From a virus (lineage: Duplodnaviria; Heunggongvirae; Uroviricota; Caudoviricetes), in the IMG/VR virus record IMGVR_UViG_2872164251_000001: 46,293 nt of DNA, one strand, 5' to 3'. Position numbers and translations under genes: made by a program. The notes beneath the pieces are model-generated. The model was not told the DNA's origin, made no database searches, and saw nothing but the letters and a program-made list of their open reading frames with translations. Shown piece after piece: positions 12,715 through 44,821 of the stretch. The stretch's first letter is position 1; the number at the start of each line of letters is the position of its first letter.

Positions 12715-12729
12715 GGTAATGACTCCAAC

Positions 12730-13233: not shown

Positions 13234-13427
13234 CCGACGCCATTCATGGCCATATCAATGATTTTCTGGTGCGTACCGGGCTGAGAGGCGGTGTAAGTGA
13301 ACTGTAGTTGCCATGTTTTACGGCAATGAGAGCAGAGATAGCGCTGATGTCCGGCAGTGCTTTTGCCGTTACGCACCACGCCTTCAGTAGCGGAGCAGGA
13401 AGGACATCTGATGGAAATGGAAGCCAC
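13152..13427 (-). CDS. insA: IS1 InsA
   Basis: [43 protein letters not shown]. Confidence 0.85.
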
Positions 13428-13482
13428 GCAAGCACCTTAAAATCACCATCATACACTAAATCAGTAAGTTGGCAGCATTACC

Positions 13483-13839
13483 AACTGGGGGTAATCCGTA
13501 TTTCTCACGGATTACGGAGTCTATTTTTTCTTCCATTTGTTTATAGTCAGGAAGAAGGCGTTTCAGTGGTGCGGGAATGTCCTGGCAATACGCTTCTGTT
13601 GCATCATGCATTAACGCTTCAAAAGCAAATTCCTGCGGCACCAGCTGGCTGCAAAGAACCGCATGTTGGGCGACGCTGTAGAAGTGCGAAAGATGACCGG
13701 CAAAGCGACAGATATTTGAAAGGGAAACCGCGATATCGTTAATATCGATGTCGTCTTTATTTATCCTGTCATAATAAAAATGCTTCCCGGAAAAAGTTTT
13801 AATAAATGACATTTTGTTCTCCACGTATATGCGCTGCAC
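13483..13839 (-). pseudogene. HD-domain protein (YfdR-like), C-terminally truncated by IS1
   Basis: H..HD signature (RFAGH ... LMHDATEAY); reading frame runs into the IS1 end. Confidence 0.5.
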
Positions 13840-22789: not shown

Positions 22790-23158
22790 TTGATGCGTGA
22801 TATTCAGATGGTTCTTGAGCGTTGGGGAGCATGGGCGGCGAGTGATAGTTCAGGCGTTGACTATTCACCTATAGCTGCTGGGTTTAAGGGACTTCTTCCC
22901 TATACCAGCAAGAAACGCTTGGCTTGTTCGGATAGTGATGCATTAATTATTGAAGGTTGTCTTGCTCGTCTAAAGCAAAAAAGACCTTATGAGCATTCGC
23001 TTCTTGTGGCACATTATTTATACAGAATATCCAAGCGTAAGATTGCAAAGGCGCGTGGAAAGGATGAGAAATTGATACGTATAGAAATACAGCTAGCCGA
23101 AGGATTTATTGATGGCTGCCTTTCCATGCTAGATCTAACATTAGATTTGGACGTTTAA
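22790..23158 (+). CDS. Late antiterminator Q (QuuD/phi82-like small Q)
   Basis: MRDIQMVLERWGAWAA... N-terminus as in DLP12 QuuD from memory. Confidence 0.7.
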   Translation: MMRDIQMVLERWGAWAASDSSGVDYSPIAAGFKGLLPYTSKKRLACSDSDALIIEGCLARLKQKRPYEHSLLVAHYLYRISKRKIAKARGKDEKLIRIEIQLAEGFIDGCLSMLDLTLDLDV

Positions 23159-23186: not shown

Positions 23187-24518
23187 TTACTGGATGAATG
23201 ACATTTGATTAATATATTTTATCAATAACTCTCTGGGTGTAGTACTCCAAAAATTTAGGTGTTCATAATCAGTATAAACAGTGGTGAATTTTTTAAGTTC
23301 TTCATCACTTTTAGGGGCAAATCGCTCATTAAGAGTAATACTGTCTTTAATTATTCCGAAGAATACAATAGATATTTCAGGAATTTGCGATCTTCTCTCA
23401 TAAGAATAAGGTATTTCTTTTATGTTAAGCAGATCTGCTAAATGAGATATAGATTCTGCGGTAATTTCTTGTTTTAGTTTTTCCTTGTCACCAAAGCAAT
23501 GTATGAAGACAGCTACGACAAAGATCTTATTTATTAAAGGATCACTGCTTTTGTACTCATCGTCGTTTAATAGTTGAAAAATGTTAAGATTGCGTGAAAA
23601 AGTTTGTGTTTCACGTAAGGATAAGTTGGTTCGTTGAATTAAATCACGGATAAATCTACCAGATAACCTATTAATTTCATTTAATGATTTTGTCTTGTCT
23701 ACAAGGTAATTCCAATATATAACAGATGTTTTACATACGACGTGACCATTTATTAAACATGTGTCTGGAAGCGTGATGGTATATTTTATAAACTTGTCAA
23801 GATACTTTTGTGAGTTAATACTATAACCATAAATATGATTTATCGATGCTTTTAATTGTTCTGTGTTTGTAACTAAAATAAAAAAGACATTATTGATGTC
23901 AAAAATGTGTTTTATTGTTTCAATGACATTTGTTGAAAAACTCGGCTTACATCGGTCTAATTCATCAATTATAATTACTATCTTTTGACTTTCTGAAATG
24001 CTTTCGATGCAAGATTTAAGTGAATTTATGTTTTTCTCTGATTCCATATGGTCTTCAAGCAAATTTTCAATAGTCCCATCTATTGCTGCATTGCTTGCTT
24101 TCTTCATCGCATCTTGGAATTCTTCGGAAACTTCACTAGCCTCCTGTCGTAAAAACCAACCTGCACCAGCTTTTAGTACCGTTTTTAAACCAAAGCGAAT
24201 TGCAGGAAGAGATCTCTTAATGAAGTGTTGTTTTTCTTCCTCAGGTAAAATGCTGGCAATTGCAGAGGTTATGAGAAGTAATGGAGATTCTGCATGATCC
24301 CCTTTAAAGGCATCAATATAAACAACTTTAGATTCAGTTTCTTGCTCAATAATGAGATTTTTCAGTTTGATACTAAATTCTGTTTTCCCTGTTCCCCATG
24401 CGCCGTCTATTACCAGTGGTGAAATGTCTGCCTCTGGTTTTAGCAACTTGATGATATTTTCAGCGATGTTTCTGCGTTGGAACTCGTCACGTTCAGTGAA
24501 AGATAGTGTATCTAACAT
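23187..24518 (-). CDS. KAP-family P-loop NTPase (PifA-like), AT-rich moron
   Basis: Walker A GAWGTGKT, Walker B IIIDELDRC; 443 aa; much lower GC than flanks by eye; opposite strand to late operon. Confidence 0.75.
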   Translation of the reverse strand: MLDTLSFTERDEFQRRNIAENIIKLLKPEADISPLVIDGAWGTGKTEFSIKLKNLIIEQETESKVVYIDAFKGDHAESPLLLITSAIASILPEEEKQHFIKRSLPAIRFGLKTVLKAGAGWFLRQEASEVSEEFQDAMKKASNAAIDGTIENLLEDHMESEKNINSLKSCIESISESQKIVIIIDELDRCKPSFSTNVIETIKHIFDINNVFFILVTNTEQLKASINHIYGYSINSQKYLDKFIKYTITLPDTCLINGHVVCKTSVIYWNYLVDKTKSLNEINRLSGRFIRDLIQRTNLSLRETQTFSRNLNIFQLLNDDEYKSSDPLINKIFVVAVFIHCFGDKEKLKQEITAESISHLADLLNIKEIPYSYERRSQIPEISIVFFGIIKDSITLNERFAPKSDEELKKFTTVYTDYEHLNFWSTTPRELLIKYINQMSFIQ

Positions 24519-24814: not shown

Positions 24815-25141
24815 ATGCCTCATAACCCAAATACCTGGTTGGAGTTGGTCCAGAGCTGGTGGCGTGGAGACACACCGCTGGGCGCAGTGATTATGTCGAT
24901 TGTTATGGCTGGCTTGCGCATTGCATATTTTGGCGGTGGTGGGGGCTGGAAACGAAAAACGCTCGAGATTTTGCTCTGTGGTGCTCTGACGCTGACTTTT
25001 GCATCCGCTCTTGAGTATGTCGGATGGCCTAAATCTCTTTCTGTTGCCATTGGTGGCGGCGTTGGGCTAATCGGGGTCGATGCTATTCGTGGGGCTGCAA
25101 TGAGAGTAATCGGTAATAAGTTTGGTGGCTCTAAGGAGTAA
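24815..25141 (+). CDS. Putative holin (three predicted TM segments)
   Basis: Small hydrophobic protein immediately upstream of endolysin. Confidence 0.55.
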   Translation: MPHNPNTWLELVQSWWRGDTPLGAVIMSIVMAGLRIAYFGGGGGWKRKTLEILLCGALTLTFASALEYVGWPKSLSVAIGGGVGLIGVDAIRGAAMRVIGNKFGGSKE

Positions 25142-26842: not shown

Positions 26843-27193
26843 ATGCCCCCTAGAATCCCAAAAGCCTGCCGTGTTCGCGGCTGCCGCTCTACAACCACGG
26901 ACCCGTCAGGCTACTGCGAAAGCCATAAAAGCGAAGGCTGGAAGCAATACAAGCCAGGACAATCTCGTCATCAGCGCGGTTATGGTTCGAAGTGGGATGT
27001 TATCCGCGTGCGTGTCCTGAAGCGTGACAAAGGCCTGTGTCAGCTATGTCTGCGTGCTGGTGTGGTGCGTGAGGCGAAAACTGTTGACCACATCATCCCT
27101 AAAGCGCATGGCGGCACAGATGCCGACAGCAATCTGCAGAGCCTGTGCTGGCCGTGCCATAAGGAGAAGACGGCCCGTGAACGGCTAAAGTGA
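26843..27193 (+). CDS. HNH endonuclease (terminase-associated)
   Basis: CxxC...DHIIPKAHGG...CWPCH motif, upstream of terminase. Confidence 0.8.
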   Translation: MPPRIPKACRVRGCRSTTTDPSGYCESHKSEGWKQYKPGQSRHQRGYGSKWDVIRVRVLKRDKGLCQLCLRAGVVREAKTVDHIIPKAHGGTDADSNLQSLCWPCHKEKTARERLK

Positions 27194-27309: not shown

Positions 27310-27813
27310 GTGCCGCATATGGCTGGAACGGCGGGGCGTTCCGGGCGTCGCCCTAAGCCAACGGCGCGCAAGGCGCTGGCCGGAAACCCCGGCAAGCGAG
27401 CCCTGAACAAAGATGAACCTGTTTTTACGCCCATCAAAGGTGTTGAGCCACCGGAGTGGTTCGCTGAAGAAGAGCTTCCTCTCGCCACGATCATGTGGCA
27501 ACTGACAACCAAAGAACTCTGCGGTCAGGGCCTGCTGTGCGTGACTGACCTTGCGGTGCTTGAGCGGTGGTGTGTGGCCTATGAGTTCTGGCGGCGTGCC
27601 GTGAAAAATATTGCCAGACAGGGCAACACCATCACCGGTGCAATGGGCGGTATGGTCAAAAATCCGGAGCTGACCGCCAAAAAAGAACAGGAGTCCGAGA
27701 TGAGCAGCACGGGGGCAATGCTCGGACTCGACCCCAGTAGCCGCCAGCGTCTGATTGGCCTGGCGGGGCAGAAGAAAGCCACTAACCCGTTTCTGAAAAT
27801 CATCGAGTCATGA
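27310..27813 (+). CDS. Terminase small subunit (P27 family)
   Basis: [22 protein letters not shown]-terminus. Confidence 0.75.
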
Positions 27814-29543
27814 GCCGGAAATCTTACCCCAACGTAAATGCTGCCAATCAGTATGCCCGTGATGTCGTGCGCGGAAAGATTGTGGCCTGCCAGTTTGTGA
27901 TTCAGGCCTGCCAGCGCCATCTTGATGACCTGATGGCGGAAAAAAGTAAGTCGTTTCGTTACCGCTTCGACAAGGAGCTGGCTGAACGGGCCGCGAAATT
28001 TATTCAGCTGTTGCCACACACCAAGGGGGAGTGGGCATTCAAGAGGATGCCCATCACGCTGGAGCCGTGGCAGCTCTTTGTGATCTGCTGTGCGTTTGGC
28101 TGGGTCAATAAAGGGTCCCGGCTGCGCCGCTTCCGGGAGGTGTATACCGAAATCCCCCGTAAGAACGGCAAATCGGCAATCTCTGCCGGTGTTGCCCTGT
28201 ATTGTTTTGCCTGTGATAACGAGTTTGGCGCGGAAGTGTATTCCGGTGCCACGACAGAGAAACAGACGTGGGAAGTCTTTCGCCCGGCGCGACTGATGTG
28301 TAAACGCACACCCATGCTGACGGAAGCGTTCGGGATTGAGGTTAACGCCTCAAACATGAACCGTCCGGAGGATGGGGCGCGGTTTGAACCGCTGATTGGT
28401 AACCCCGGTGATGGTTCATCACCCCACTGTGCGGTGGTGGATGAATATCACGAGCACGCCACAGATGCGCTTTACACCACGATGCTTACCGGGATGGGGG
28501 CGCGACGTCAGCCACTGATGTGGGCTATCACTACCGCCGGGTACAACATTGAGGGGCCGTGCTACGACAAACGGCGGGAAGTCATCGAGATGCTCAACGG
28601 TTCGGTACCCAACGATGAACTGTTCGGGATTATCTATACCGTTGATGAAGGTGACGACTGGACCGACCCGCAGGTGCTGGAAAAAGCCAATCCAAATATT
28701 GGCGTGTCGGTTTATCGCGAATTTTTGTTAAGTCAGCAGCAGCGTGCGAAAAATAACGCCCGTCTGGCAAACGTCTTTAAAACAAAACACCTCAATATCT
28801 GGGTGTCGGCGCGTTCGGCGTATTTCAACCTGGTGAGCTGGCAGAGCTGCGAGGATAAATCACTGACCCTTGAGCAGTTCGAGGGGCAGCCGTGCATTCT
28901 GGCCTTTGACCTGGCGCGTAAGCTGGATATGAACAGCATGGCGCGACTTTATACCCGCGAGATTGACGGTAAAACGCATTACTACAGTGTGGCCCCGCGT
29001 TTCTGGGTACCGTATGACACGGTGTACAGCGTCGAGAAAAATGAAGATCGACGGACAGCCGAACGCTTTCAGAAATGGGTGGAAATGGGCGTTCTGACCG
29101 TTACCGATGGTGCGGAGGTGGATTATCGCTACATCCTCGAGGAGGCCAAAGCGGCGAACAAAATCAGTCCGGTCAGTGAGTCACCCATCGACCCCTTCGG
29201 GGCGACCGGGTTGTCACATGACCTTGCTGATGAAGACCTGAACCCCATCACTATCATTCAGAACTACACCAACATGTCCGACCCGATGAAAGAGCTGGAA
29301 GCGGCAATTGAATCGGGGCGCTTTCATCATGATGGCAATCCCATCATGACCTAGTGTATCGGCAACGTGGTCGGCAAAACCATTCCGGGTAACGATGATG
29401 TGGTGAAGCCCGTCAAAGAGCAGGCGGAAAACAAAATTGACGGTGCAGTTGCGCTGATTATGGCGGTTGGCAGAGCCATGCTGTACGAGAAAGAAGACAC
29501 GCTGTCTGACCACATTGAGTCCTATGGGATCCGCTCGCTTTAA
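27810..29543 (+). pseudogene. Terminase large subunit with in-frame amber codon at 29352-29354
   Basis: ORF ends ...GNPIMT-TAG then the same frame continues CIGNVVGK...[22 protein letters not shown]... for 62 codons to TAA at 29541. Confidence 0.7.
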
Positions 29544-29554: not shown

Positions 29555-29737
29555 ATGATCATGCTGATTCTCGCGCCTCTGGTGGGCGTGCTGGGGGCGC
29601 TTTTGCTGGCGTATGGTGCCTGGCTGATTTATCCCCCGGCGGGGTTTGTTGTTGCCGGGGCGTTGTGCCTGTTCTGGTCGTGGCTGGTGGCGCGATATCT
29701 CGACCGTACACAGTCGTCTGTCGGCGGAGGTAAATAG
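29555..29737 (+). CDS. Small hydrophobic protein
   Basis: 60-aa ORF with TM-like segment between terminase and portal. Confidence 0.35.
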
Positions 29738-30978
29738 TGTTCTTTTCGGGATTATTTCAACGAAAAAGTGACGCACCGGTGACCACGCCAGCAGAGCTGG
29801 CGGATGATATCGGGTTGTCCTACGACACCTATACCGGAAAGCAGATCAGCAGCCAGCGGGCCATGCGACTGACGGCGGTTTTTTCCTGTGTCAGGGTGCT
29901 GGCGGAGTCGGTCGGGATGTTGCCCTGCAACCTGTATCACCTGAACGGCAGCCTGAAGCAGAGAGCCACTGGCGAACGTCTGCATAAGCTGATCTCCACG
30001 CATCCCAATGGCTATATGACGCCGCAGGAGTTCTGGGAGCTGGTGGTCACCTGTCTGTGCCTGCGGGGAAACTTTTACGCCTACAAAGTGAAAGCATTTG
30101 GCGAAGTGGCTGAACTGCTGCCCGTCGATCCCAGCTGTGTGGTACCGAAGCTTAACAGTAGCTGGGAGCCGGTCTATCAGGTCACATTCCCGGATGGCTC
30201 CGCGGATGTACTGAGCCAGGAGGATATCTGGCATGTGCGCACGCTGACGCTGGACGGACTGGTGGGGCTGAATCCCATCGCCTATGCCCGCGAGGCAATA
30301 TCGCTGGCGGCAGCGACCGAAGAGCACGGGGCCAGACTGTTCAGCAATGGCGCGGTGACGTCGGGTGTGTTGCGTACAGAGCAGACGCTGTCAGATCAGG
30401 CTTACGAGCGCCTGAAGAAAGATTTTGAGGAGCGTCACACCGGGCTTGGCAATGCTCACCGCCCGATGATCCTTGAGATGGGGCTGGACTGGAAGTCGAT
30501 GGCGCTGAACGCCGAGGACAGCCAGTTCCTGGAAACCCGCAAGTTTCAGCTTGAAGAAATCTGTCGTCTGTTCCGGGTGCCGTTGCACATGGTGCAGAAC
30601 ACCGATCGCGCCACTTTCAACAATATTGAAGAGCTGGGGCTGGGATTTATCAACTATTCACTGGTGCCGTATCTGACCCGCATCGAACAGCGGATCAACA
30701 CCGGACTGGTACGAAAAAGTAAGCAGGGCGTTTATTACGCCAAATTTAACGCCGGGGCGTTACTGCGCGGGGATATGAAGTCCCGTTTTGAAGCCTACGC
30801 CACCGGGATTAACTGGGGAATTTACTCTCCCAATGACTGCCGCGACCTGGAAGATATGAATCCGCGTCCCGGTGGTGATGTCTATCTCACACCGATGAAC
30901 ATGACCACGAAACCCTCCGATGGCAGTAAAGCCGGTAAGCAGAAGGATAACGCCAATGCAGACGAAACAACGTCTTGA
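29737..30978 (+). CDS. Portal protein (HK97 family)
   Basis: 413 aa, position after terminase, portal-like sequence. Confidence 0.8.
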   Translation: MFFSGLFQRKSDAPVTTPAELADDIGLSYDTYTGKQISSQRAMRLTAVFSCVRVLAESVGMLPCNLYHLNGSLKQRATGERLHKLISTHPNGYMTPQEFWELVVTCLCLRGNFYAYKVKAFGEVAELLPVDPSCVVPKLNSSWEPVYQVTFPDGSADVLSQEDIWHVRTLTLDGLVGLNPIAYAREAISLAAATEEHGARLFSNGAVTSGVLRTEQTLSDQAYERLKKDFEERHTGLGNAHRPMILEMGLDWKSMALNAEDSQFLETRKFQLEEICRLFRVPLHMVQNTDRATFNNIEELGLGFINYSLVPYLTRIEQRINTGLVRKSKQGVYYAKFNAGALLRGDMKSRFEAYATGINWGIYSPNDCRDLEDMNPRPGGDVYLTPMNMTTKPSDGSKAGKQKDNANADETTS

Positions 30979-31606
30979 TGTACCGCTGAGTCTGAAATCT
31001 GTCAGTGACTCCGGTGAGTTTGAAGGGTATGGCTCCGTCTTTGGTGTAAAGGACAGCCACGATGATGTGGTGATGTCCGGGGCATTTGCCGCTTCCCTGC
31101 GGGCGTGGAGTGACAGAAAAGCGTTACCTGCGCTGCTCTGGCAGCACCGCATGGATGAGCCCATCGGTGTTTACACCGAAATGAAGGAAGACGATGTCGG
31201 GCTTTACGTCAGGGGGCGGTTGCTCATTGATGATGATCCCCTGGCAAAACGCGCACATGCACACATGAAGGCCGGTTCGTTAACCGGCCTTTCTATTGGG
31301 TACGTCCTGAAGGACTGGGAATACGACCGGACGAAAGAAGCCTTTCTGCTGAAAGAAATCGACCTCTGGGAAGTCAGTCTGGTGACGTTTCCGTCTAACG
31401 ACGAGGCGCGGATCAGCGACGTCAAGAACGCGCTGGCCCGCGGGGAAATCCCCGAACAGAAAAAAATCGAAAGAGTCCTGCGTGATGTCGGACTCTCCCG
31501 TACCCAAGCCAAAGCATTCATGGCCGGGGGCTATATCGCACTGTCCCTGCGCGACGCTGAGGATGTGGGCTCTGCACTGAATGCACTGAAAAATCTGAAC
31601 TTCTAA
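30956..31606 (+). CDS. Prohead protease (HK97 family)
   Basis: AAGGA RBS; position between portal and major capsid. Confidence 0.75.
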   Translation: MQTKQRLDVPLSLKSVSDSGEFEGYGSVFGVKDSHDDVVMSGAFAASLRAWSDRKALPALLWQHRMDEPIGVYTEMKEDDVGLYVRGRLLIDDDPLAKRAHAHMKAGSLTGLSIGYVLKDWEYDRTKEAFLLKEIDLWEVSLVTFPSNDEARISDVKNALARGEIPEQKKIERVLRDVGLSRTQAKAFMAGGYIALSLRDAEDVGSALNALKNLNF

Positions 31607-31620
31607 TCAGGAGAAATACG

Positions 31621-32826
31621 ATGGCGGTAGATATTAAAGATGTCGAACAGGTCGCGCAGGAGCTGCAGCAGAAGTTTGACGACTTCAAAGCAAAGAACGA
31701 CAAGCGCGTGGATGCGATTGAGCAGGAAAAAGGCAAGCTTGCCGGGCAGGTGGAAACCCTGAACGGGAAACTCAGCGAGCTGGAAAATCTCAAAAGCGAT
31801 CTTGAAAAAGAGCTGCTTGAGCTGAAACGTCCGGCAGGTGGCGCGCAAAATAAACTGGCCACCGAGCATAAAGAAGCGTTTGTGGGCTTTTTGCGTAAAG
31901 GCCGTGAAGATGGTCTGCGCGATCTGGAGCGTAAGGCATTGCAGGTGGGCACCGATGAAGACGGTGGCTATGCCGTGCCGGAAGCGCTGGATCGCAACAT
32001 TCTCACCCTGCTGAAAGATGAAGTGGTGATGCGCCAGGAAGCCACGGTGATCACCGTTGGCGGTTCCGACTACAAAAAACTGGTGAATCTGGGCGGCACG
32101 GCTTCCGGATGGGTGGGGGAAACGGATACGCGATCCCAGACTGCCACCTCCAGACTGGAGCTGATTGAACCTCTCATGGGGGAAATCTACGGCAACCCGC
32201 AGGCCACCCAGAAAATGCTGGACGATGCCTTCTTCAACGTGGAGGCCTGGATCAACAGCGAGCTGGCAACCGAATTTGCCGAACAGGAAGAAATTGCCTT
32301 TACCACCGGCGATGGTACCAAGAAGCCGAAAGGGTTCCTGGCGTATGAATCCACTGATGAAACCGATAAGGTCCGGGCGTTCGGCAAACTTCAGCATATT
32401 GTATCCGGCGAAGCGACGGCGGTGACCGCAGACGCCATTATCAAACTGATTTACACGCTGCGTAAGGCACACCGCACCGGCGCGAAGTTCATGATGAACA
32501 ACAACAGCCTGTTTGCCATCCGTCTGCTTAAAGACAGCGAGGGTAACTATCTGTGGCGTCCGGGGCTGGAACTGGGGCAGCCGTCCTCTCTGGCGGGTTA
32601 CGGTATCGCTGAAAACGAACAGATGCCGGATATCGCCGCTGATGCGAAAGCCATTGCATTTGGTAACTTCAAACGGGGTTACACCATCGTTGACCGTATC
32701 GGCACCCGCATTCTGCGTGACCCGTACACCAATAAACCGTTTGTCGGTTTTTATACCACCAAGCGCACCGGCGGGATGCTGGTCGATTCGCAGGCCATCA
32801 AACTGCTGAAGATTGCAGCGGCGTAA
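31621..32826 (+). CDS. Major capsid protein (HK97 fold) with N-terminal coiled-coil delta domain
   Basis: 401 aa, coiled-coil N-terminus then capsid-like body. Confidence 0.85.
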   Translation: MAVDIKDVEQVAQELQQKFDDFKAKNDKRVDAIEQEKGKLAGQVETLNGKLSELENLKSDLEKELLELKRPAGGAQNKLATEHKEAFVGFLRKGREDGLRDLERKALQVGTDEDGGYAVPEALDRNILTLLKDEVVMRQEATVITVGGSDYKKLVNLGGTASGWVGETDTRSQTATSRLELIEPLMGEIYGNPQATQKMLDDAFFNVEAWINSELATEFAEQEEIAFTTGDGTKKPKGFLAYESTDETDKVRAFGKLQHIVSGEATAVTADAIIKLIYTLRKAHRTGAKFMMNNNSLFAIRLLKDSEGNYLWRPGLELGQPSSLAGYGIAENEQMPDIAADAKAIAFGNFKRGYTIVDRIGTRILRDPYTNKPFVGFYTTKRTGGMLVDSQAIKLLKIAAA

Positions 32827-32875
32827 TCACTCAGGGGCGCGGAACCGCGCCCCCTGTTCTGACGGGTGAAGAATC

Positions 32876-33076
32876 ATGATCCTGAAACAAGATCTGAAAT
32901 GGTCACCGGACGGTATGCGTGTTGAGGTCATTCGGGCCGGTGAGTATGACGACGGGGCGCTTCCTGCCCGGGTGCAGGAGATTGCACTTCAGGCCGGGTT
33001 AGCAGAGCGCGGAACCAGTGCAAAAAGCAGTAAAGCGACAAAAGAGAAAAAAGCCACGACCAGTAAAGAGGGCTGA
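32876..33076 (+). CDS. Hypothetical small head-region protein
   Basis: 66-aa ORF with Lys-rich tail. Confidence 0.35.
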   Translation: MILKQDLKWSPDGMRVEVIRAGEYDDGALPARVQEIALQAGLAERGTSAKSSKATKEKKATTSKEG

Positions 33077-33078
33077 GT

Positions 33079-33402
33079 ATGCTTCTGACAATGGAAGAGA
33101 TTAAAGCCCAACTCCGGCTGGATGAGGATTTCGATGCTGATGACCGCCATCTGCAACTGCTGGCCTGTGCGGCACAAAAGCGGACGGAAACGTATCTGAA
33201 CCGGAAGCTCTATGCACCGGATGAAACCATTCCGGACAGCGATCCGGACGGGCTGCACCTGCCGGATGATATTCGTCTGGGGATGCTGATGCTTATCAGC
33301 CATTTTTACGAAAACCGCTCGTCGGTTACGGAAGTGGAGAAACTTGACATGCCGCAGAGTTTTGGCTGGCTTGTCGGCCCGTACAGGTACTTTCCGCAAT
33401 GA
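33079..33402 (+). CDS. Head-tail connector protein (gp6-like)
   Basis: Position and size. Confidence 0.55.
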   Translation: MLLTMEEIKAQLRLDEDFDADDRHLQLLACAAQKRTETYLNRKLYAPDETIPDSDPDGLHLPDDIRLGMLMLISHFYENRSSVTEVEKLDMPQSFGWLVGPYRYFPQ

Positions 33403-33809
33403 AAATTCGTCAGGCGCAGACCAGCGCAACCTACATTCTGCCGGACCCCGGTGAACTGAATAAACGCGTCCTGATCCGCCTGCGGGTGGATATGCCCGCG
33501 GATAACTTTGGCGTGGAGCCTCAATACCTGATTACGTTCCGGACATGGGCGAAGGTTATCCAGACCAGTGCCACCACCTGGCAGGAAACCGCGCAGACCG
33601 GGGACGCCATCACCCATTACATCACCATTCGTTACCGCCGGGGGATTACCGCTGATTATGAGGTGGTCTGCGGTGACAGTGTGTACCGGGTGAAACGTCA
33701 GCGCGATCTGAACGGGGCGCGGCGCTTTCTGCTGCTGGAGTGTACGGAACTGGGCGAATGTGGGCAGAGTCACGGAGGCAACAATGACGACTTCCTTTTT
33801 GCACGTTGA
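33399..33809 (+). CDS. Head closure/adaptor protein
   Basis: Position and size, overlapping starts. Confidence 0.5.
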   Translation: MKIRQAQTSATYILPDPGELNKRVLIRLRVDMPADNFGVEPQYLITFRTWAKVIQTSATTWQETAQTGDAITHYITIRYRRGITADYEVVCGDSVYRVKRQRDLNGARRFLLLECTELGECGQSHGGNNDDFLFAR

Positions 33810-34290
33810 TTTTCAGCAGCCCGCGGAGATGCGCTTTAACCGCGCCCGTGTCCGGCGGGCGTTTGTCACGATTGGTCAGCGTCATATGCGTGATGCCCGT
33901 CGGCTGGTGATGCGCCGTGCGCGGTCGGCACCGGGTGAAAACCCCGGTTATCAGACCGGACGCCTGGCTCGTTCGATTGGTTACATGGTACCCAGAGCCA
34001 GTAAACATCGCCCTGGTTTTATGGCACGTATAGCCCCTAACCAGCGTAATGGAGAGGGAAACCGCCGTATCACCGGTGATTTTTATCCGGCTTTTTTGTT
34101 CTATGGCGTGAGGCGAGGGGCAAAGCGTCGTCGCAGCCATCATCGTGGTGCATCCGGTGGCAGCGGCTGGCGACTGGCTCCACGTAATAACTTTATGGTG
34201 GAAACGCTTGAAAAGAACCGCAGCTGGACACGCTATTTTCTGGCGCGGGAATTGCGTAAATCACTGAAGCCGGAGCGACGACACAGATGA
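33784..34290 (+). CDS. Virion morphogenesis protein (Mu G-like)
   Basis: Arg-rich protein before tail genes. Confidence 0.45.
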   Translation: MTTSFLHVDFQQPAEMRFNRARVRRAFVTIGQRHMRDARRLVMRRARSAPGENPGYQTGRLARSIGYMVPRASKHRPGFMARIAPNQRNGEGNRRITGDFYPAFLFYGVRRGAKRRRSHHRGASGGSGWRLAPRNNFMVETLEKNRSWTRYFLARELRKSLKPERRHR

Positions 34291-34847
34291 AACTGACGCC
34301 TGTTATTGCTGCGCTGCGTGCCCGCTGCCCGTATTTTGAAAACCGGGTGGCAGGCGCGGCACAGTTCAAAAATCTGCCGGAGGTCGGAAAGCTGAGACTC
34401 CCGGCGGCGTATGTGGTACCGGGTGATGACTCTCCGGGAGAAAACAAAAGCCAGACCGACTACTGGCAGGAGCTGAAAGAGGGCTTCTCCGTGGTTGTCA
34501 TACTGAGTAACGGGCGTGATGAGCGCGGTCAGTTTGCCTCGTATGATGTGGTGGACGATGTCCGGCAAATGCTCTTTAAGGCCCTGCTGGGCTGGAACCC
34601 GGAAGCGTGCGGTAACCCGATTACCTATGACGGCGGCACGCTGCTGGATCTGAATCGTCATGAGCTGATTTATCAGTTCGATTTTTCGGTCATCAGCGAG
34701 TTGACCGAAGACGATACCCGCCAGCAGGATGACCTGAACAGTCTGGATGAACTGCGAACGCTGGCGATTGATGTTGATTATCTAGAGCCCGGTAACGGGC
34801 CTGACGGCGATATCGAACATCACACCGAAATAACCCTTCCTTCCTGA
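34287..34847 (+). CDS. Tail terminator-like protein (Mu gp37-like)
   Basis: Position upstream of sheath. Confidence 0.45.
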   Translation: MKLTPVIAALRARCPYFENRVAGAAQFKNLPEVGKLRLPAAYVVPGDDSPGENKSQTDYWQELKEGFSVVVILSNGRDERGQFASYDVVDDVRQMLFKALLGWNPEACGNPITYDGGTLLDLNRHELIYQFDFSVISELTEDDTRQQDDLNSLDELRTLAIDVDYLEPGNGPDGDIEHHTEITLPS

Positions 34848-34856
34848 GAATCTTCA

Positions 34857-35024
34857 TGTTTGTGAAACCTGTTAAAGGGCGGTCAGTTCCTGACCCTGCC
34901 CGCGGAGACCTTTTGCCCGCCGAGGGGCGAAATGTTGATGAGAACAACTACTGGCTGCGCCGTGAAGCAGCGGGTGATATCCGGCGCGTGAATGAAAAGG
35001 TGAATACCGATGACGAGCTTTAAC
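34857..35024 (+). CDS. Small protein (Mu gp38-like)
   Basis: 55-aa ORF just before sheath. Confidence 0.35.
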
Positions 35025-36503
35025 ACCATTCCGTCAAATACGCTGGTTCCGATTTTTTATGCGGAAATGGATAACTCGGCGGCGAATACTGCACAGGACA
35101 GCGGAGCATCGCTGCTGATTGGTCATGCCAATAACGGTGCAGAGATTGTTGCCAACAGTCTGGTGCTGATGCCATCGGCAGACTATGCACGCCAGATTTG
35201 TGGTGCGGGAAGTCAGCTGGCGCGTATGGTCGAGGCTTATCGCCAGACCGACCCGTTTGGTGAGCTGTATGTGATTGCCGTTCCAGAAGCCACAGGCGCG
35301 GCGGCAACGGTTACGCTGACGGTGACCGGGGAAGCAACCGAAAGCGGCACGGTGAATGTCTATGTGGGACGTACCCGCGTGCAGGCTCCGGTGACCAACG
35401 GCGATAACGTCACGACGATTGCCAGCAGTATCCAGGATGCCATCAATGCCGTTCCGGCCCTGCCGTTTACGGCTTCATCTTCGGCAGGCGTGGTCACACT
35501 GACCGCGCGTCATAAGGGGCTTTGCGGGAATGAAATTCCTGTCAGCCTCAATTACTACGGCTTTGGTGGGGGCGAAGTGCTGCCAGCGGGCGTACAGATT
35601 GCCGTGGCGACGGGTACCGCCGGAACGGGTGCTCCGGTTCTCACCGGCGCGGTGGCTGCAATGGCGGATGAGCCGTTTGATTATATCGGCCTGCCGTTCA
35701 ACGACACGGCCTCCGTTAACACGCTGGTGACCGAGATGAACGATACCAGCGGTCGCTGGAGCTATGCGCGTCAGCTGTATGGTCATGTGTATACGGCAAA
35801 GATCGGCACGCTGTCAGAACTGGTGACCGCAGGTGACCAGTTTAACCAGCAGCACATTACCCTGGCGGGATACGAAAAAGAGACCCAGACGCCTGCCGAC
35901 GAGCTGGCGGCAAGCCGTACCGCCCGCGCAGCGGTGTTTATTCGCAACGATCCGGCACGTCCCACGCAGACCGGTGAGCTGGTGGGTATGCTGCCTGCGC
36001 CGAAGGGGAAACGGTTCACGATGACCGAACAACAGACCCTGCTGTCTCATGGCGTGGCAACGGCGTATGTCGAAAGCGGGGTGCTGCGCATTCAGCGTGA
36101 TGTCACCACGTACAGGAAAAACGCTTACGGTGTTGCGGATAACAGCTACCTCGACAGCGAGACGCTGCATACCAGCGCGTATGTGCTGCGCAAACTGAAA
36201 TCCGTCATTACCAGTAAGTACGGGCGTCACAAGCTTGCCAGCGACGGTACCCGCTTTGGTCCCGGTCAGGCGATTGTCACACCGGCGGTGATCAAAGGGG
36301 AACTGCTGGCAACCTACCGTCAGCTTGAGCGTGCGGGGATCGTGGAAAACTACGAACTGTTTAAGCAGTACCTGGTTGTGGAGCGTGATGCCAGCGATCC
36401 GAACCGCCTGAACACGCTGTTCCCGCCTGACTATGTTAACCAGTTGCGTGTCTTTGCCGTGGTTAACCAGTTCCGTCTTCAGTATTCAGAGGAGTCTGCA
36501 TAA
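35010..36503 (+). CDS. Contractile tail sheath protein
   Basis: 497 aa followed by tube gene. Confidence 0.8.
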   Translation: MTSFNTIPSNTLVPIFYAEMDNSAANTAQDSGASLLIGHANNGAEIVANSLVLMPSADYARQICGAGSQLARMVEAYRQTDPFGELYVIAVPEATGAAATVTLTVTGEATESGTVNVYVGRTRVQAPVTNGDNVTTIASSIQDAINAVPALPFTASSSAGVVTLTARHKGLCGNEIPVSLNYYGFGGGEVLPAGVQIAVATGTAGTGAPVLTGAVAAMADEPFDYIGLPFNDTASVNTLVTEMNDTSGRWSYARQLYGHVYTAKIGTLSELVTAGDQFNQQHITLAGYEKETQTPADELAASRTARAAVFIRNDPARPTQTGELVGMLPAPKGKRFTMTEQQTLLSHGVATAYVESGVLRIQRDVTTYRKNAYGVADNSYLDSETLHTSAYVLRKLKSVITSKYGRHKLASDGTRFGPGQAIVTPAVIKGELLATYRQLERAGIVENYELFKQYLVVERDASDPNRLNTLFPPDYVNQLRVFAVVNQFRLQYSEESA

Positions 36504-36859
36504 TGGCCCGTATCGGGGGAACCTGTTATTTCAAAATTGACGGTCAACAGCTATCGCTGACCGGCGGCATTGAGGTGCCCATGAACAGGACGGTCAATGA
36601 TGACATCATCGGCCTGGACGGTTCAGTGGACCGCAAGGAAACTCACCGTGCGCCTTATGTCAAAGGGACCTTCAAGGTGCCGAAGAATTTTCCGGCGAGC
36701 AAAATCACCTCGTCTGATGAGATGACCATCACTGCCGAGCTGGCGAACGGTCAGGTCTATGTACTGTCGTCTGCCTGGCTGCACGGCGAAGCGAACCATA
36801 ATGCCGAAGAAGGCACGGTCGATCTTGAGTTCCACGGTGAAGAAGGGGATTACCAGTAA
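36503..36859 (+). CDS. Tail tube protein
   Basis: 118 aa between sheath and chaperone. Confidence 0.7.
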   Translation: MARIGGTCYFKIDGQQLSLTGGIEVPMNRTVNDDIIGLDGSVDRKETHRAPYVKGTFKVPKNFPASKITSSDEMTITAELANGQVYVLSSAWLHGEANHNAEEGTVDLEFHGEEGDYQ

Positions 36860-37128
36860 TGAAAGAGCTTGAGTTAAAGAAACCGATTACCGCTCATGGC
36901 GAGACACTCTCCGTACTGGAGTTTGATGAGCCCACCGGGAAAGATGTCCGCGAGCTGGGGTATCCCTACCAGATGAATCAGGATGAGTCCGTCAGACTTC
37001 TGGCGCATGTGGTATCGAAATATATTGTGCGGCTGGCGAAAGTGCCGCAAAGCTCTGTCGACCAGATGTCTCCGGCAGACCTGAATGCAGCGGCGTGGCT
37101 TGTGGCTGGTTTTTTCCTCCAGGCCTGA
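36859..37128 (+). CDS. Tail assembly chaperone (G-like)
   Basis: 89 aa, ends with slippery T_TTT_TTC. Confidence 0.6.
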   Translation: MKELELKKPITAHGETLSVLEFDEPTGKDVRELGYPYQMNQDESVRLLAHVVSKYIVRLAKVPQSSVDQMSPADLNAAAWLVAGFFLQA

Positions 37129-37277
37129 CGGCTGAATACCTTACTGATCGCTTCTTTGATTGCGCCAGCTACTGGCGCATTAATCCCTTCGAATTGCTGA
37201 ATATGCCGATCAGTGAAATTCCCTTGCTGGTCAGTCAGGCAAACAGGATAGAGCAGGAGAAACGCACACATGGCTGA
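36859..37277 (+). CDS. Tail assembly chaperone frameshift product (GT-like) via -1 shift at 37110-37116
   Basis: -1 frame open from slippery site to 37277, overlapping tape-measure start. Confidence 0.45.
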
Positions 37278-39105
37278 ATTTGAGCTTAAGGCGTTGATCA
37301 CCGGTGTCGACAGGCTTTCTCCCGCGCTGTCGAAAATGCAAAAGAAAATCCGGGGATTTAAACGCCAGGCGGAAGAAGCGTCACAGGGTGGGCTGGCGCT
37401 TGGTGGCGGACTGGCAGCGGGTCTGACGCTTTCCCTGAAATCTTATGCCGATCAGGAAAACGCCGCCACCGGGCTGAAAGTCGCCATGATGGATGCGAAT
37501 GGCGAGGTTGGAAAGAGCTTTCAGGACATCAATAAACTGGCTATTGGCCTGGGTAACCAGCTACCCGGTACAACGGCTGATTTCCAGAACATGATGCAGA
37601 TGCTGGTGCGTCAGGGGATCCCGGCAGAAAATATTCTTGGCGGTGTGGGTAAAGCGACAGCTTATCTTGCGGTACAACTGAAAAAAACACCGGAAGCGGC
37701 TGCTGAGTTTGCTGCAAAGATGCAGGATGCTACCGGAACGGCGTCAGAAGACATGATGGGGCTGTTCGACACTATCCAGAAGGCGTTTTATCTGGGCGTT
37801 GACGATACCAACATGTTGTCCTTCTTCACTAAAACCAGTTCTGTTCTGAAGATGGTGAACAAGGACGGTCTTCAGGCTGCACAGAGCCTTGCCCCCATCA
37901 GCGTCATGATGGATCAGATGGGGATGAACGGGGAGTCGGCAGGTAATGCCCTGCGAAAAGTTATCCAGTCCGGATTAAGCGTTAAGAAAATCAGGGACGT
38001 CAATAAAATCATGGCCCGCCAGAAACTCGGGGTACAGCTCGATTTTACTGACGGCAAAGGAAGTTTTGGCGGTCTTGATAACATGTTCAGGCAACTGGCA
38101 AAGCTGCGAAAACTGACCGACGTTAAGCGAACAGGTGTACTTAAGGCAATATTTGGTGATGATGCCGAAACCCTTCAGGTGGTCAATGCACTAATCGATA
38201 AAGGAAAGGATGGCTACGATCAGATCCAGCAGAAGATGAATAAACAGGCCAGCCTGAATAAACGTGTTCAGGCCCAGCTTGGTACGCTGTCCAACCTGTG
38301 GGAGGCAATGACGGGGACCGCAACTAACGGCCTTGCGGCTATTGGCGGCGCATTTTCTGGTGACGCCAAAAATATCACGCAATGGCTGGGGGAGTTGGGG
38401 GAGAAATTCACGAAGTTTGCGGATGAAAATCCCCGGGTTATTCGCGGCGTCGTCGGGCTTGCTGCCGGTCTTGCGATTCTGAAACTGGGATTGATGGGCG
38501 TGGGCAGTGCCATCAGTATCGTCAGCAGGATCATGTCGATGACGCCGATTGGCATGATTGCGACGGCGATTGCCCTGGCTGCGGGATTAATTATCACTAA
38601 CTGGGATGTTGTCGGACCTTATTTCAAGAAGCTCTGGGAAACCATTGGTCCTTATTTTGAGGCTGGCTGGGAACTCCTTAAGAAAGTTTTTGCCTGGTCG
38701 CCGCTGGGGATGGTGATCAATCACTGGGGGCCGGTTGTTAAGTGGTTTCAGGATATGTGGGACAAGCTGAAGCCAATTATTGAGTGGTTTACCGACAGTT
38801 CCGGAGACACGGTCGATGCCATTAACTCTGCGCAGTGGGGCGCGGGTGCTTATGATGCTTATGGGACGGGAATACCGGCACGGGGATACACACCTTATCC
38901 GGCGGTGGATCCGGCTCAGTCAAACAACGCCTCCGATGCCACAGGCCCGAATCCCTTCATGATTAACAAAGCTTCTGCGCCAAAAGTTGATGGTGAGATC
39001 AAGGTCTCTTTTGTGAATTCGCCTCCGGGGATGCGGGTTATGGAAACGCGATCCAGCGGTTTTGATGTCAGCCATGATGTTGGCTATACGCGCTTTGGCA
39101 GGTAA
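37270..39105 (+). CDS. Tail tape measure protein
   Basis: 611 aa, Gly/Ala-rich, TM-like segments. Confidence 0.85.
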   Translation: MAEFELKALITGVDRLSPALSKMQKKIRGFKRQAEEASQGGLALGGGLAAGLTLSLKSYADQENAATGLKVAMMDANGEVGKSFQDINKLAIGLGNQLPGTTADFQNMMQMLVRQGIPAENILGGVGKATAYLAVQLKKTPEAAAEFAAKMQDATGTASEDMMGLFDTIQKAFYLGVDDTNMLSFFTKTSSVLKMVNKDGLQAAQSLAPISVMMDQMGMNGESAGNALRKVIQSGLSVKKIRDVNKIMARQKLGVQLDFTDGKGSFGGLDNMFRQLAKLRKLTDVKRTGVLKAIFGDDAETLQVVNALIDKGKDGYDQIQQKMNKQASLNKRVQAQLGTLSNLWEAMTGTATNGLAAIGGAFSGDAKNITQWLGELGEKFTKFADENPRVIRGVVGLAAGLAILKLGLMGVGSAISIVSRIMSMTPIGMIATAIALAAGLIITNWDVVGPYFKKLWETIGPYFEAGWELLKKVFAWSPLGMVINHWGPVVKWFQDMWDKLKPIIEWFTDSSGDTVDAINSAQWGAGAYDAYGTGIPARGYTPYPAVDPAQSNNASDATGPNPFMINKASAPKVDGEIKVSFVNSPPGMRVMETRSSGFDVSHDVGYTRFGR

Positions 39106-39165
39106 TGAAAAATTAATCTGTTAATGAGTCCCACTCCGGTGGGATTTTTTATGTACGGAGTTTAT

Positions 39166-40494
39166 ATGACGTGGAAAGACAGACTTCAGGACGCGTCATT
39201 TCGCGGTGTGCCGTTTAAGGTTGAAGAAGAAAGTGCGGGAACCGGTCGTCGTGTGGAAACGCACGAATACCCGAACCGCGACAAACCCTATACCGAAGAC
39301 CTGGGGAAAATCACTTTCCGCCCGTCCATCACGGCTTATGTGGTGGGCGATGACTGCTTTGACCAGCGCGATCGCCTGATTGACGCGCTGAATAAACCCG
39401 GTCCCGGCACGCTTGTCCATCCGACATACGGTGAGCTGAAAGTCTGTGTTGACGGAGAAGTTCGGGTCAGCACATCGAAGAATGAAGGGCGTATTGTCCG
39501 CTTTGACCTGAAGTTTGTCGAAGCGGGAGAACTCTCTTACCCCACATCAGGTGCGGCGACGGCGCAGACGCTGATGTCATCCTGTTCTGCACTGGATGAC
39601 TGCATCAGTGACAGCTTCAGCGGTTTCAGTATCGATGGTGTGGCGGATTTCGTGCAGAACGACGTTATCGGTAATGCCAGCATAATGCTGGGGTATGTTT
39701 CTGATGCGATGAAAGTGGTGGATTCTGCCGTATCGGATGTCGCCAGGCTGTTGCAGGGGGATATCTCGGTACTTCTGCCGCCGCCATCGTCAGGCAAAAA
39801 TTTCGTTGAGCAGGTGCAGAAAATGTGGCGTACCGGGAAACGCCTTTATGGTAACGCCAGCGACCTGGTCACCATGATCAAAACGCTTTCCGGTGTCAGC
39901 CTCGGCAGCGATCTGCAACCGCGCGGCGTCTGGAAAACGGACAGTAAAACCACCGCCACGGCGACGCAGCAGCGTAACGTGGTTGCCAGCACCCTTCGTA
40001 CGACCGCAATCAGCGAAGCGGCGTATGCCGTCACCCGATTGCCTGCGCCAACAACTTCCGCGGTGATGCAGAATGCCGCAGTGGGGCAGGCAACAACACC
40101 CGCGCAGAGCACTTGCTGGCCTTCCGCCACGCATCCGGCACTGAACAATGCACCGGCGGTGAAAAACACGGTTGACCTGCCGACGTGGGAAGAACTGACT
40201 GACATTCGCGACACACTGAATACGGCAATTGATAAGGAGTTGTCCCGTACAACCAGCGATGCGCTGTTTCTGGCGCTGCGCCGGGTGAAAGCAGATCTGA
40301 ATGCGGATATCAACACGCGCCTTGAACAGTCTGCACGGATCATTCAGCGCACACCGGATGAGGTTTTACCCGCGCTGGTGCTGGCGGCGACCTGGTTTGA
40401 TAACGCGGCGCGTGACGCGGACATTATCCGGCGTAATGCCATTACGCATCCCGGCTTTGTGCCGGTGATCCCTCTGAAGGTGCCAGTGCAATGA
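39166..40494 (+). CDS. DNA circularization protein (Mu N-like)
   Basis: Position after tape measure; GGAG RBS before MTWKD. Confidence 0.6.
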   Translation: MTWKDRLQDASFRGVPFKVEEESAGTGRRVETHEYPNRDKPYTEDLGKITFRPSITAYVVGDDCFDQRDRLIDALNKPGPGTLVHPTYGELKVCVDGEVRVSTSKNEGRIVRFDLKFVEAGELSYPTSGAATAQTLMSSCSALDDCISDSFSGFSIDGVADFVQNDVIGNASIMLGYVSDAMKVVDSAVSDVARLLQGDISVLLPPPSSGKNFVEQVQKMWRTGKRLYGNASDLVTMIKTLSGVSLGSDLQPRGVWKTDSKTTATATQQRNVVASTLRTTAISEAAYAVTRLPAPTTSAVMQNAAVGQATTPAQSTCWPSATHPALNNAPAVKNTVDLPTWEELTDIRDTLNTAIDKELSRTTSDALFLALRRVKADLNADINTRLEQSARIIQRTPDEVLPALVLAATWFDNAARDADIIRRNAITHPGFVPVIPLKVPVQ

Positions 40495-41570
40495 ACGATA
40501 ACGTCACGCTACGGGTAAATGGCCGGGAGTGGAATGGCTGGACATCGGTGCGCATCGGTGCCGGTATTGAACGGCTGGCGCGGGATTTCAGTGTGGAGAT
40601 CTCCCGCCAGTGGCCGGGAGATGGGGGTATCACCACGCTTCAGCCGCGCATTAAAAACGGTTCAAAAGTGGAAGTGCTGATTGGTGATGAGCTGGTGATC
40701 ACCGGCTGGGTGGAGGCGACGCCCGTTCGTTACGATGCCCGTTCGGTCAGCACCGGTATTGCCGGACGCAGTCTGACGGCTGACCTGATTGACTGTGCAG
40801 CCGAACCGACACAGTTTAACGGACGAGAGCTGGTACAGATTGCGCAGGCGCTTGCTGCGCCTTTCGGCATTGAGGTGGTGAACAACGGTGCGCCGTCGGG
40901 TGTTATTCCTGACGTCCAGCCCGATCACGGTGAAACGGTGATTGAGGTAATCAACAAAATACTCGGTCAGCAGCAGGCACTGGCTTACGACGACCCGCAC
41001 GGCAGGCTGGTGATTGGTGGTATTGGCTCAACGCGGGCACATACTGCGCTGGTACTCGGGGAAAACATCCTTTCCTGCGATACGGAGAAGAGTATCCGGG
41101 AGCGGTTTTCTGTTTACCAGGTGGCGGGGCAGCGTGCCGGAAACGACGATGATTTCGGTGAGGCCACCACCACCGCGCTGCGGGCCCGCACAGAGGACGC
41201 ATTTATTGCCCGTTACCGTCCGATGTATATCAGGCAGACAGGGCAGGCTACGGGGGCAGGCTGTATTGCGCGTGCTGACTTTGAAGCCCGGCAACGGGCG
41301 GCGCGGACGGATGAAACCACCTATGTGGTGCAGGGCTGGCGACAGGGTAACGGTACGCTGTGGCAGCCCAACCAGCGGGTGATTGTCTTCGATCCGGTCT
41401 GTGGTTTTGACAATACCGAACTGCTTGTCTCGGAAGTCACGTTTACTCAGGACCAGAATGGCACTCTGACGGAAATCCGTGTCGGCCCGCCTGATGCTTA
41501 TCTGCCTGAACCCGAAGACCCCGGCGCGCGGAAAAAGAAAAAAGCCAGAGTACAGGAGGACCCGTTCTGA
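40491..41570 (+). CDS. Baseplate hub protein (Mu gp44 / P2 gpD-like)
   Basis: 359 aa in baseplate cluster. Confidence 0.6.
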   Translation: MNDNVTLRVNGREWNGWTSVRIGAGIERLARDFSVEISRQWPGDGGITTLQPRIKNGSKVEVLIGDELVITGWVEATPVRYDARSVSTGIAGRSLTADLIDCAAEPTQFNGRELVQIAQALAAPFGIEVVNNGAPSGVIPDVQPDHGETVIEVINKILGQQQALAYDDPHGRLVIGGIGSTRAHTALVLGENILSCDTEKSIRERFSVYQVAGQRAGNDDDFGEATTTALRARTEDAFIARYRPMYIRQTGQATGAGCIARADFEARQRAARTDETTYVVQGWRQGNGTLWQPNQRVIVFDPVCGFDNTELLVSEVTFTQDQNGTLTEIRVGPPDAYLPEPEDPGARKKKKARVQEDPF

Positions 41571-42118
41571 TGAGGACGATTGAAGCCATGCAGCGACAAC
41601 TCCTCGGCCTGATTGGGCGGGCCGTGGTGAAAAGCATCAGTGCCGCCACGAAATGTCTGACCGTGGATGTGTCCCTGATTGCCGGTGAACCCAAAGCCGG
41701 GGTTGAACATCTTGAACCCTACGGTTTTACCGCAAGGGCAAACAGCGGTGCGGAAGCGGTGGTGTTGTTTCCGGATGGCGACCGTTCTCATGCGGTGGTT
41801 GTTACGGTGTCAGACCGGCGCTACCGCCTGAAAGGGCTGCAGACGGGTGAGGTGGCTGTCTATGACGATCAGGGGCAGTCCGTGACGCTGACCCGGGAGG
41901 GGATCGTGGTGGACGGTGCAGGTAAAACGATCACGTTTCGCAATGCACCTGAAGCACGTTTTGAAATGGACCTGGAAGTAACAGGACAGGTGAAAGACCT
42001 GTGCGACTCCGGCGGCACCACCATGTCAGCAATGCGGCTTGCCTATAACGGTCATCGTCACAGAGAGAACGGTCAGGGCAGTAACACCGATAAACCTGAT
42101 AAAGCTATGGAGGCATGA
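41570..42118 (+). CDS. Baseplate assembly protein V (spike)
   Basis: 182 aa gpV-like. Confidence 0.65.
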   Translation: MRTIEAMQRQLLGLIGRAVVKSISAATKCLTVDVSLIAGEPKAGVEHLEPYGFTARANSGAEAVVLFPDGDRSHAVVVTVSDRRYRLKGLQTGEVAVYDDQGQSVTLTREGIVVDGAGKTITFRNAPEARFEMDLEVTGQVKDLCDSGGTTMSAMRLAYNGHRHRENGQGSNTDKPDKAMEA

Positions 42119-42543
42119 TGGAACTGTGGCTGACGGTGAACGGTAAACGCACCTGCGCCAGCGCACCGCTGGATCCGCTGACCCGCGCCGTGGTGATTTC
42201 CCTGTTTACCTGGCGGCGGGCGGAGCCTGATGACAACGCCGACGTCCCGATGGGATGGTGGGGGGATACCTGGCCTGCGGTACAGAATGACCGTTACGGC
42301 TCCCGACTGTGGCTGCTTCAGCGCAGCAAACTGACCAATCAGCTGGTGCAGACGGTAAGGGGGTATATCCGCGAATGCCTGCAATGGATGATTGATGACG
42401 GCGTGGTGTCCCGTATTGATCTGGATATCCGCCGCACCGGGATTAATGAACTGGGTAACAGTATCACTCTCTGGCGTCGTGACGGACCGGTAATGATTTC
42501 TTTTGATGATCTGTGGAGTGCGATAACGCATGGCGGACAGTGA
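42115..42543 (+). CDS. Baseplate protein (Mu gp46-like)
   Basis: 142 aa, position. Confidence 0.6.
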   Translation: MMELWLTVNGKRTCASAPLDPLTRAVVISLFTWRRAEPDDNADVPMGWWGDTWPAVQNDRYGSRLWLLQRSKLTNQLVQTVRGYIRECLQWMIDDGVVSRIDLDIRRTGINELGNSITLWRRDGPVMISFDDLWSAITHGGQ

Positions 42544-43588
42544 ATTTCAGCGCCCGACGCTGGCAGAAAATATCAGTATGCTCCGTAACGATTTATTCGC
42601 CAGGCTGGACGTCAGCGACACGCTCCGGCGCATGGATGAAGACGTGCGGGCAAAGGTGTATGCGGCGGCGCTGCATACGGTTTACGGGTACATCGATTAT
42701 CTGGCAATGAACATGCTGCCTGACCTGTGCGATGAGTTCTGGCTGGCGCGACATGCTGCGATGAAACGGTGTCCGCGCAAGGGGGCCACGGCTGCCAGCG
42801 GGTATATGCGCTGGGAAGGTGTCAGCGATGGCCTGAAGGTGACCGCCGGAAGTGTTATTCAGCGCGATGACCTGGTTCAGTACACGGCAACTGCCGATGC
42901 AACCAGCTCCGGTGGTGTCCTGCGCCTGCCGATCGCCTGTTCAACTGCAGGCGCGGTCGGTAACGCTGACGACGGTACGGCATTAATCCTGGTCACGCCG
43001 GTGAATGGTCTGCCGTCTTCCGGTGTTGCAGATACCCTGACAGGTGGATTTGATACTGAAGAGCTGGAAACGTGGCGCGCCCGCGTCATTGAGCGGTATT
43101 ACTGGACGCCGCAGGGCGGGGCTGACGGGGACTATGTCGTCTGGGCTAAAGAAGTGCCCGGCATTACCCGTGCATGGACATACCGTCACTGGATGGGAAC
43201 GGGGACTGTCGGTGTGATGATTGCCAGTAGTGACCTGATTAATCCCATTCCGGAAGAATCAACGGAAACGGCGGCAAGACAACATATCGGGCCACTGGCC
43301 CCGGTGGCAGGCTCTGATTTGTATGTGTTCAGGCCGGTGGCGCATACGGTGGATTTTCATATCCGCGTGACGCCGGATACACCGGAAATACGGGCTGCCA
43401 TCACCGCGGAGTTGCGTTCGTTCCTGCTGCGTGATGGTTATCCGCAGGGAGAACTGAAGGTATCGCGTATCAGTGAGGCGATTTCCGGTGCGAACGGGGA
43501 ATACAGCCATCAGTTGCTTGCCCCGGCTGACAATATCTCCATTGCAAAAAATGAACTGGCGGTTCTGGGGACGATTTCATGGACGTGA
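42530..43588 (+). CDS. Baseplate J-like protein (Mu gp47-like)
   Basis: 352 aa, position. Confidence 0.75.
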
Positions 43589-44163: not shown

Positions 44164-44166
44164 TCC

Positions 44167-44817: not shown

Positions 44818-44821
44818 CGAA

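Follow-up and report, generated by a model that had tools for sequence, protein, structure and literature searches.

Shigella phages SfI, SfII, SfIV and SfV are reported to have an identical cos site in common and to package their genomes by cos cleavage (PMC3851460). Their late genes are arranged in the order HNH-terS-terL-ymfR-portal-protease-capsid-tail, and terL in this group encodes a large terminase subunit (TerL) of 577 aa with a tryptophan at position 515. A more distant point of reference is TerL of phage HK97, in which D302, D388 and D471 form the catalytic centre and K463, located after an auxiliary beta-hairpin, reaches into the active site (PMC9410871). Prophages of Shigella flexneri, for their part, are reported to have decayed into cryptic elements (PMC5596473).

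The DNA analysed here, referred to as the window, is the entire 46,293-nt stretch of the Caudoviricetes record IMGVR_UViG_2872164251_000001 in IMG/VR. It carries a prophage with the same gene order as SfII, SfI, SfIV and SfV, and its 19-kb late region is collinear with SfII at 97.9%. The prophage differs from these phages in having an amber codon in place of Trp515 of terL and in having lost the int/xis arm. Like the cryptic S. flexneri prophages, it is surrounded by insertion sequences (IS1 and two copies of IS911), truncated in one arm and adjoined by remnants of other phages, but its virion module is whole save for one point mutation, which places it at an early stage of late-gene decay. 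In our assessment, the amber codon is very probably a genuine, vertically inherited nonsense mutation (W515amber; TGG>TAG, 29353 G>A) belonging to the ordinary decay of an SfII/SfV-like cos prophage of S. flexneri.

The truncated terL ORF lies on the plus strand at 27810-29354. It has an ATG start and comprises 514 codons and the TAG at 29352-29354. The 514 codons cover the full ATPase domain and, of the nuclease domain, the first ~85%. Frame translation beyond the TAG revealed 62 further sense codons up to a TAA at 29541-29543. An earlier sequence-only reading of this DNA had given the same coordinates and codon count, both of which are exact, and had described the continuation as terminase-like. 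This description holds well. The orphaned 3' end (29355-29543, plus strand; 62 codons and the TAA) codes for a segment aligning with the HK97 beta-hairpin region, Lys536, Asp544 and the C-terminal tail, and taken alone it matches positions 251-284 of the 286 in the Pfam profile TerL_nuclease (PF20441). The 62 codons carry no further changes. At the amino-acid level they match the last residues of a 577-aa TerL, encoded by a prophage in Escherichia coli APEC E123, at 100%, and the C-termini of the SfI, SfII, ST64B and phiP27 proteins almost as closely. The open stretch after the TAG is evidently not a product of chance.

In megablast comparisons, terL was 96.5-98.3% identical at the DNA level to its counterparts in Shigella phages SfI, SfII, SfIV and SfV and in E. 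coli phage vB_EcoM-689R6 (96.5-97.1% for the four Shigella phages), ~80% identical to that of Salmonella ST64B and ~75% to that of phiP27. The gene is present in 1,405 of 5,426 complete E. coli genomes. The full-length matches examined are annotated as a 'terminase large subunit' of 577 aa (1734 nt; 1713 nt in phiP27). Codon 515, equivalent to codon 508 in phiP27, is TGG in all seven homologues aligned (SfI, SfII, vB_EcoM-689R6, ST64B, phiP27 and two E. coli prophages), and the surrounding sequence ATGAC(C/A)-TGG-TGTATC is found in all seven, the distant ST64B and phiP27 included. None of the aligned homologues naturally ends at codon 514. HK97 TerL has Met at the position aligned with Trp515 and continues well past it.

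The nearest relative of this terL is that of the APEC E123 prophage, from which it differs at only 3 of 1734 nt, namely 27977 (D56E), 28266 (A153T) and 29353 (TGG>TAG, W515*). The single TGG to TAG change proposed from the sequence alone as the cause of the truncation is thereby confirmed, with A at 29353 against G in the nearest relative and TGG throughout the homologues. The other two substitutions are private to the TerL of the window, and both fall at positions invariant in the seven homologues, phiP27 and ST64B included; A153 is aligned with Ala in HK97 TerL as well. Changes at such sites may hint at relaxed constraint rather than maintenance.

The consequences of the stop for the enzyme can be predicted from domain profiles and from HK97. 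The ATPase domain is complete (Pfam TerL_ATPase, PF03354, residues 86-256, E = 2.4e-25), and the motif PRKNGKS at residues 116-122 is read as Walker A. TerL_nuclease, on the other hand, matches the truncated ORF only over profile positions 4-242 of 286. Residues 112-556 of the full-length frame align with HK97 TerL (PDB 6Z6D) at E = 4.7e-25 and ~25% identity; chain numbering in 6Z6D is offset by +10, such that D312 of the chain, in 'GLDLS', is D302. HK97 TerL and the full-length frame are alike in their two-domain architecture and in having equivalents of D302, D388, D471 and K463, which by this alignment are D367, D461, D544 and K536 here. They differ in that identity is only ~25%, in Met versus Trp515, and in that the ORF of the window ends before the equivalents of K463 and D471. 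Accordingly placed on the plus strand, Asp367 (28908-28910, equivalent to HK97 D302) and Asp461 (29190-29192, D388) are retained, whereas Lys536 (29415-29417, K463) and Asp544 in the motif KIDGAVA (29439-29441, catalytic D471) lie beyond the stop.

Translation would thus stop after residue 514 of 577, keeping the ATPase domain, D367 and D461, and the stop would remove the stretch aligned with the beta-hairpin, K536, D544 and the C-terminal tail, leaving the nuclease incomplete. Only with Trp in place of the TAG does the frame encode a complete RNase H-like nuclease with three catalytic aspartates. An incomplete RNase H fold with two aspartates is not expected to cut cos DNA, a prediction based on the ~25%-identity alignment with HK97 TerL and on general knowledge of terminase nucleases. 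As cos cleavage should fail, genome packaging should fail too. The inactivation of packaging suggested by the sequence-only reading is therefore also the outcome predicted from the alignment of Lys536 and Asp544 with HK97 K463 and D471.

The genes surrounding terL are those of an HK97-like cos-packaging module, with HNH and small terminase genes before it and portal, protease and capsid genes after it. The HNH endonuclease gene (26843-27193, plus strand), a partner gene in HK97-type cos packaging modules that also adjoins the terminase genes in HK97 itself, is intact. So is the gene for the small terminase subunit (P27/Terminase_4 family; 27319-27813, plus strand), the stop codon of which overlaps the start of terL. 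The rest of the virion module (29555-45223, plus strand) is full length without internal stops and encodes a ymfR-like membrane protein, portal, protease, capsid, connectors, sheath, tube, tape measure, baseplate and tail-fibre assembly proteins. When every SfII protein was compared with the window by tblastn, terS and 22 genes downstream of terL were found to be full length, at 94-100% identity and with no stops. terL is the only SfII-type packaging or virion gene with a stop, the 23 others being intact. Since neither the 62 codons after the stop nor these 23 genes are damaged, either the amber mutation is recent or the late module is still under some selection.

At its right end, the window stops inside a gene on the minus strand (45999-46292) for an acyltransferase homologue, 99% identical to residues 252-349 of SfII_25. 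This end falls short of the position that the gtr genes occupy in SfII, and O-antigen-modifying cargo probably lies just beyond the end of the window.

The left arm tells a different story from the virion module. In intact relatives from other genomes, found via contigs with the DUF2303 protein and the O protein, this arm consists of int, xis, two small genes, a 178-aa gene and the DUF2303 gene. In the window, SfII-like DNA begins abruptly at 13483, inside the SfII_34 homologue, of which residues 1-110 of 178 are left (13483-13812, minus strand). The gene is cut by a 768-bp IS1 (12715-13482, minus strand) with the flanks ggcggcgtc and aactggggg. These flanks form no target-site duplication, which points to a deletion or rearrangement mediated by IS1 and speaks against simple insertion. 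In a tblastn search with SfII proteins, the window lacked the cognate int and xis as well as the two small genes beyond the SfII_34 homologue. The only int and xis present are ~55% and 41% identical, respectively, with int split by IS911, and belong to another remnant. With its left arm lost, the prophage copy is unable to excise unaided, regardless of terL. The prophage is defective apart from terL, and the amber codon is not its only lesion; the int/xis arm was lost either before the amber mutation or separately from it. The description of the prophage in the sequence-only reading as otherwise intact-looking is accordingly correct for the packaging and virion module, but not for the arm with int and xis, lost at IS1 12715-13482.

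Several other elements are found in the window. To the left of IS1 are P22/Sf6-like remnants, comprising a DUF2824 gene (11333-11956), the gene for the gp7 ejection protein (11959-12651) and a truncated next gene. A decayed lambdoid prophage occupies window positions 1-11415. Its int is present as fragments at 25-1032 and 2252-2413, split by IS911 (1032-2280), followed by a further IS3-family transposase (3018-3908), an antirepressor (4807-5529), RusA, a lysozyme (8002-8478) and Rz, and a second, inverted copy of IS911 lies at 10163-11415. Within the SfII-like prophage, a low-GC stretch (0.42) encodes a KAP-family P-loop NTPase of 443 aa (23187-24518, minus strand), flanked by the Q antiterminator (22790-23158) on one side and the holin (24815-25138) on the other. 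Its orientation, opposite to that of the late genes, suggests an accessory ('moron') gene, possibly one for anti-phage defence. In relatives, this slot holds other cargo, e.g. a DNA methylase with an AAA ATPase, or a Clp protease.

The sequence context of the mutated base points to a likely origin. Amber mutations in E. coli classically arise by deamination of 5-methylcytosine at Dcm sites. Amber hotspots in lacI, reportedly described by Coulondre and Miller in 1978, are likewise said to lie at CCAGG (Dcm) sites. Dcm methylates CCWGG, and very-short-patch (VSP) repair acts on the resulting T:G mismatches (PMC4444293). Codon 515 overlaps such a site at 29350-29354, which is CCTGG in all relatives and CCTAG here, and opposite the mutated G, in the CCAGG of the bottom strand, stands the internal C that Dcm methylates. 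In the ancestral ACC-TGG, the 5-methylcytosine of the bottom strand would have been deaminated to give a T:G mismatch which, escaping VSP repair, would have been fixed as CCTAG. Three CCWGG sites are present in terL. A repaired terL has 205 possible single-base nonsense substitutions, 44 of them transitions, and the only one that fits deamination of Dcm 5-methylcytosine is the change observed. W515amber therefore probably arose by deamination at the Dcm site, although the match of a single event could be a coincidence, the chance of which is about 1 in 44 to 1 in 205. The lacI hotspots and the window agree in the CCWGG context, the internal cytosine pair, the G:C to A:T change and the TAG product. 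They differ in that the former come from a measured mutation spectrum, while the latter is a single natural event for which Dcm activity of the host is assumed, the dcm/vsr locus lying outside the window.

The truncated product is already present in public databases. It is identical to EIQ19677.1, a 'phage Terminase family protein [Shigella flexneri K-1770]', and the exact 514-aa protein occurs on 76 contigs and is listed by 86 blocks of the collection. The TAG was present in all seven loci retrieved, which match the window at 99.9-100% identity across 5-21 kb. Three of these are NCBI assemblies (GCA_000268245.1, GCA_049895265.1 and GCA_900486275.1), and four are assemblies of public read sets (ERR591291, ERR6004804, ERR592256 and DRR016003) from different projects and platforms. 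These matches also identify the host as S. flexneri, with which the IS-rich flank agrees. A 61-nt probe centred on the TAG matched 1,199 E. coli complete-genome records, all at 60 of 61 bases and none perfectly. An exact 23-mer containing the TAG had no match in a one-genome-per-species collection, which we assume holds no S. flexneri, and a single match in viral contigs, on a contig as long as that of K-1770 (42,124 nt) and so likely to add nothing. The allele appears to be private to one lineage of S. flexneri. With longer homologues, a sense codon at the site of the stop and a stop that is reproducible, terL fits a nonsense pseudogene with a predicted loss of function.

Two peculiarities of these assemblies may be mentioned separately. 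Two of the other TAG assemblies (L007 and L008) differ from the window almost only by ~18-21 clustered SNPs at 38625-39348, which run from the 3' part of the tape-measure gene into the beginning of the DNA-circularisation gene after it. This cluster could be a recombination patch or could reflect assembly mixing between paralogous prophages. Three short-read TAG contigs (L009, L011 and L012) end exactly at window position 30540, inside the portal gene. Such breaks suggest a repeat boundary, probably due to a second related prophage that could supply late functions or TerL in trans.

Four other explanations of the TAG were weighed against a genuine decay mutation. A sequencing or assembly error masking a true TGG was among the possibilities raised by the sequence-only reading, and the difference from the homologues at codon 515 is indeed one of a single base. 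However, an error is effectively excluded, because the same TAG occurs in seven of seven independent assemblies from varied projects and platforms and the 514-aa product on 76 contigs. A second proposal of that reading was suppression of the amber codon. More broadly, a host or phage suppressor tRNA, or leaky termination, might allow enough full-length TerL to be made for packaging, for which the undamaged state of the 62 downstream codons and of the remaining virion module could be cited. This is very unlikely and finds no support in the data. The window contains no tRNA gene, hence no suppressor tRNA, and the stop is conserved in no relative, which speaks against a programmed signal. The base directly 3' of the TAG is U, and UAG followed by U is a strong termination context in E. 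coli. Natural amber suppressors are not known from Shigella. Even with full-length TerL, moreover, the prophage copy would be without int and xis. It is also conceivable that terL has become a split gene, in which a 58-aa peptide translated on its own joins the 514-aa product to form an active nuclease, since some annotators call a 58-aa ORF from an internal GTG at 29367. The likelihood of this is as negligible as that of an error. No Shine-Dalgarno motif is found upstream of this GTG, while the adjoining genes have GGAG or GAGG motifs; the 58-aa piece would begin within the segment aligned with the HK97 beta-hairpin; and such an organisation is found in no relative.

The remaining explanation is selection for the truncation: a TerL without nuclease activity, but with its ATPase and TerS-binding part intact, could poison the terminase of superinfecting SfV-like phages and so act as a dominant-negative exclusion factor. 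The allele is fixed in the S. flexneri clone and the ATPase domain is intact, both of which are compatible with this idea. Against it, the allele has a single origin with no recurrence, and none of the 1,199 E. coli records carries the TAG. A repressed prophage should express its late genes hardly at all, and D56E and A153T, which hit invariant sites, point to relaxed constraint. None of the other short members read from the 90% cluster of this TerL ends at codon 514. The 498-aa forms have an internal Met start or are shortened at the N-terminus, with W515 and the C-terminus kept; one other member is without its N-terminal end, one is a contig-edge partial that breaks off within a few residues after W515, and in one the C-terminus is disrupted in another way, ahead of position 515. 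Recurrent C-terminal truncation in the cluster was therefore rejected, the short forms being N-terminal, contig-edge or otherwise disrupted. Selection for the truncation is thus improbable, slightly more so than readthrough. The same low standing applies to the view that truncated TerL is kept for interference with the packaging motors of SfV-like phages or, as a weaker variant, that low-level readthrough tunes terminase dosage, and no observation requires either idea. Vertical inheritance of a nonsense mutation in a decaying prophage accounts for the TAG most readily, the amber codon being, by this account, one more step of prophage decay in an IS-rich Shigella genome.

The APEC E123 prophage has undergone a large deletion of its own, at positions 5331-5336 of its locus (L001), where the portal gene is joined to baseplate genes (compare window positions 30145 and 41050). 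As this deletion differs from the lesions in the window, closely related prophages appear to decay by different routes in different hosts. The terL of the window is, on present evidence, an ordinary clonal pseudogene of a kind already known. Its proper label is terL pseudogene (W515amber), and what is annotated downstream as a 58-aa 'hypothetical protein' is its orphaned 3' end. Prophage predictors should score this prophage as defective despite its complete-looking virion module. The TAG allele could be used as a clonal marker of one S. flexneri lineage. With little import beyond annotation, the locus is a clear-cut natural case of an amber mutation at a Dcm site.
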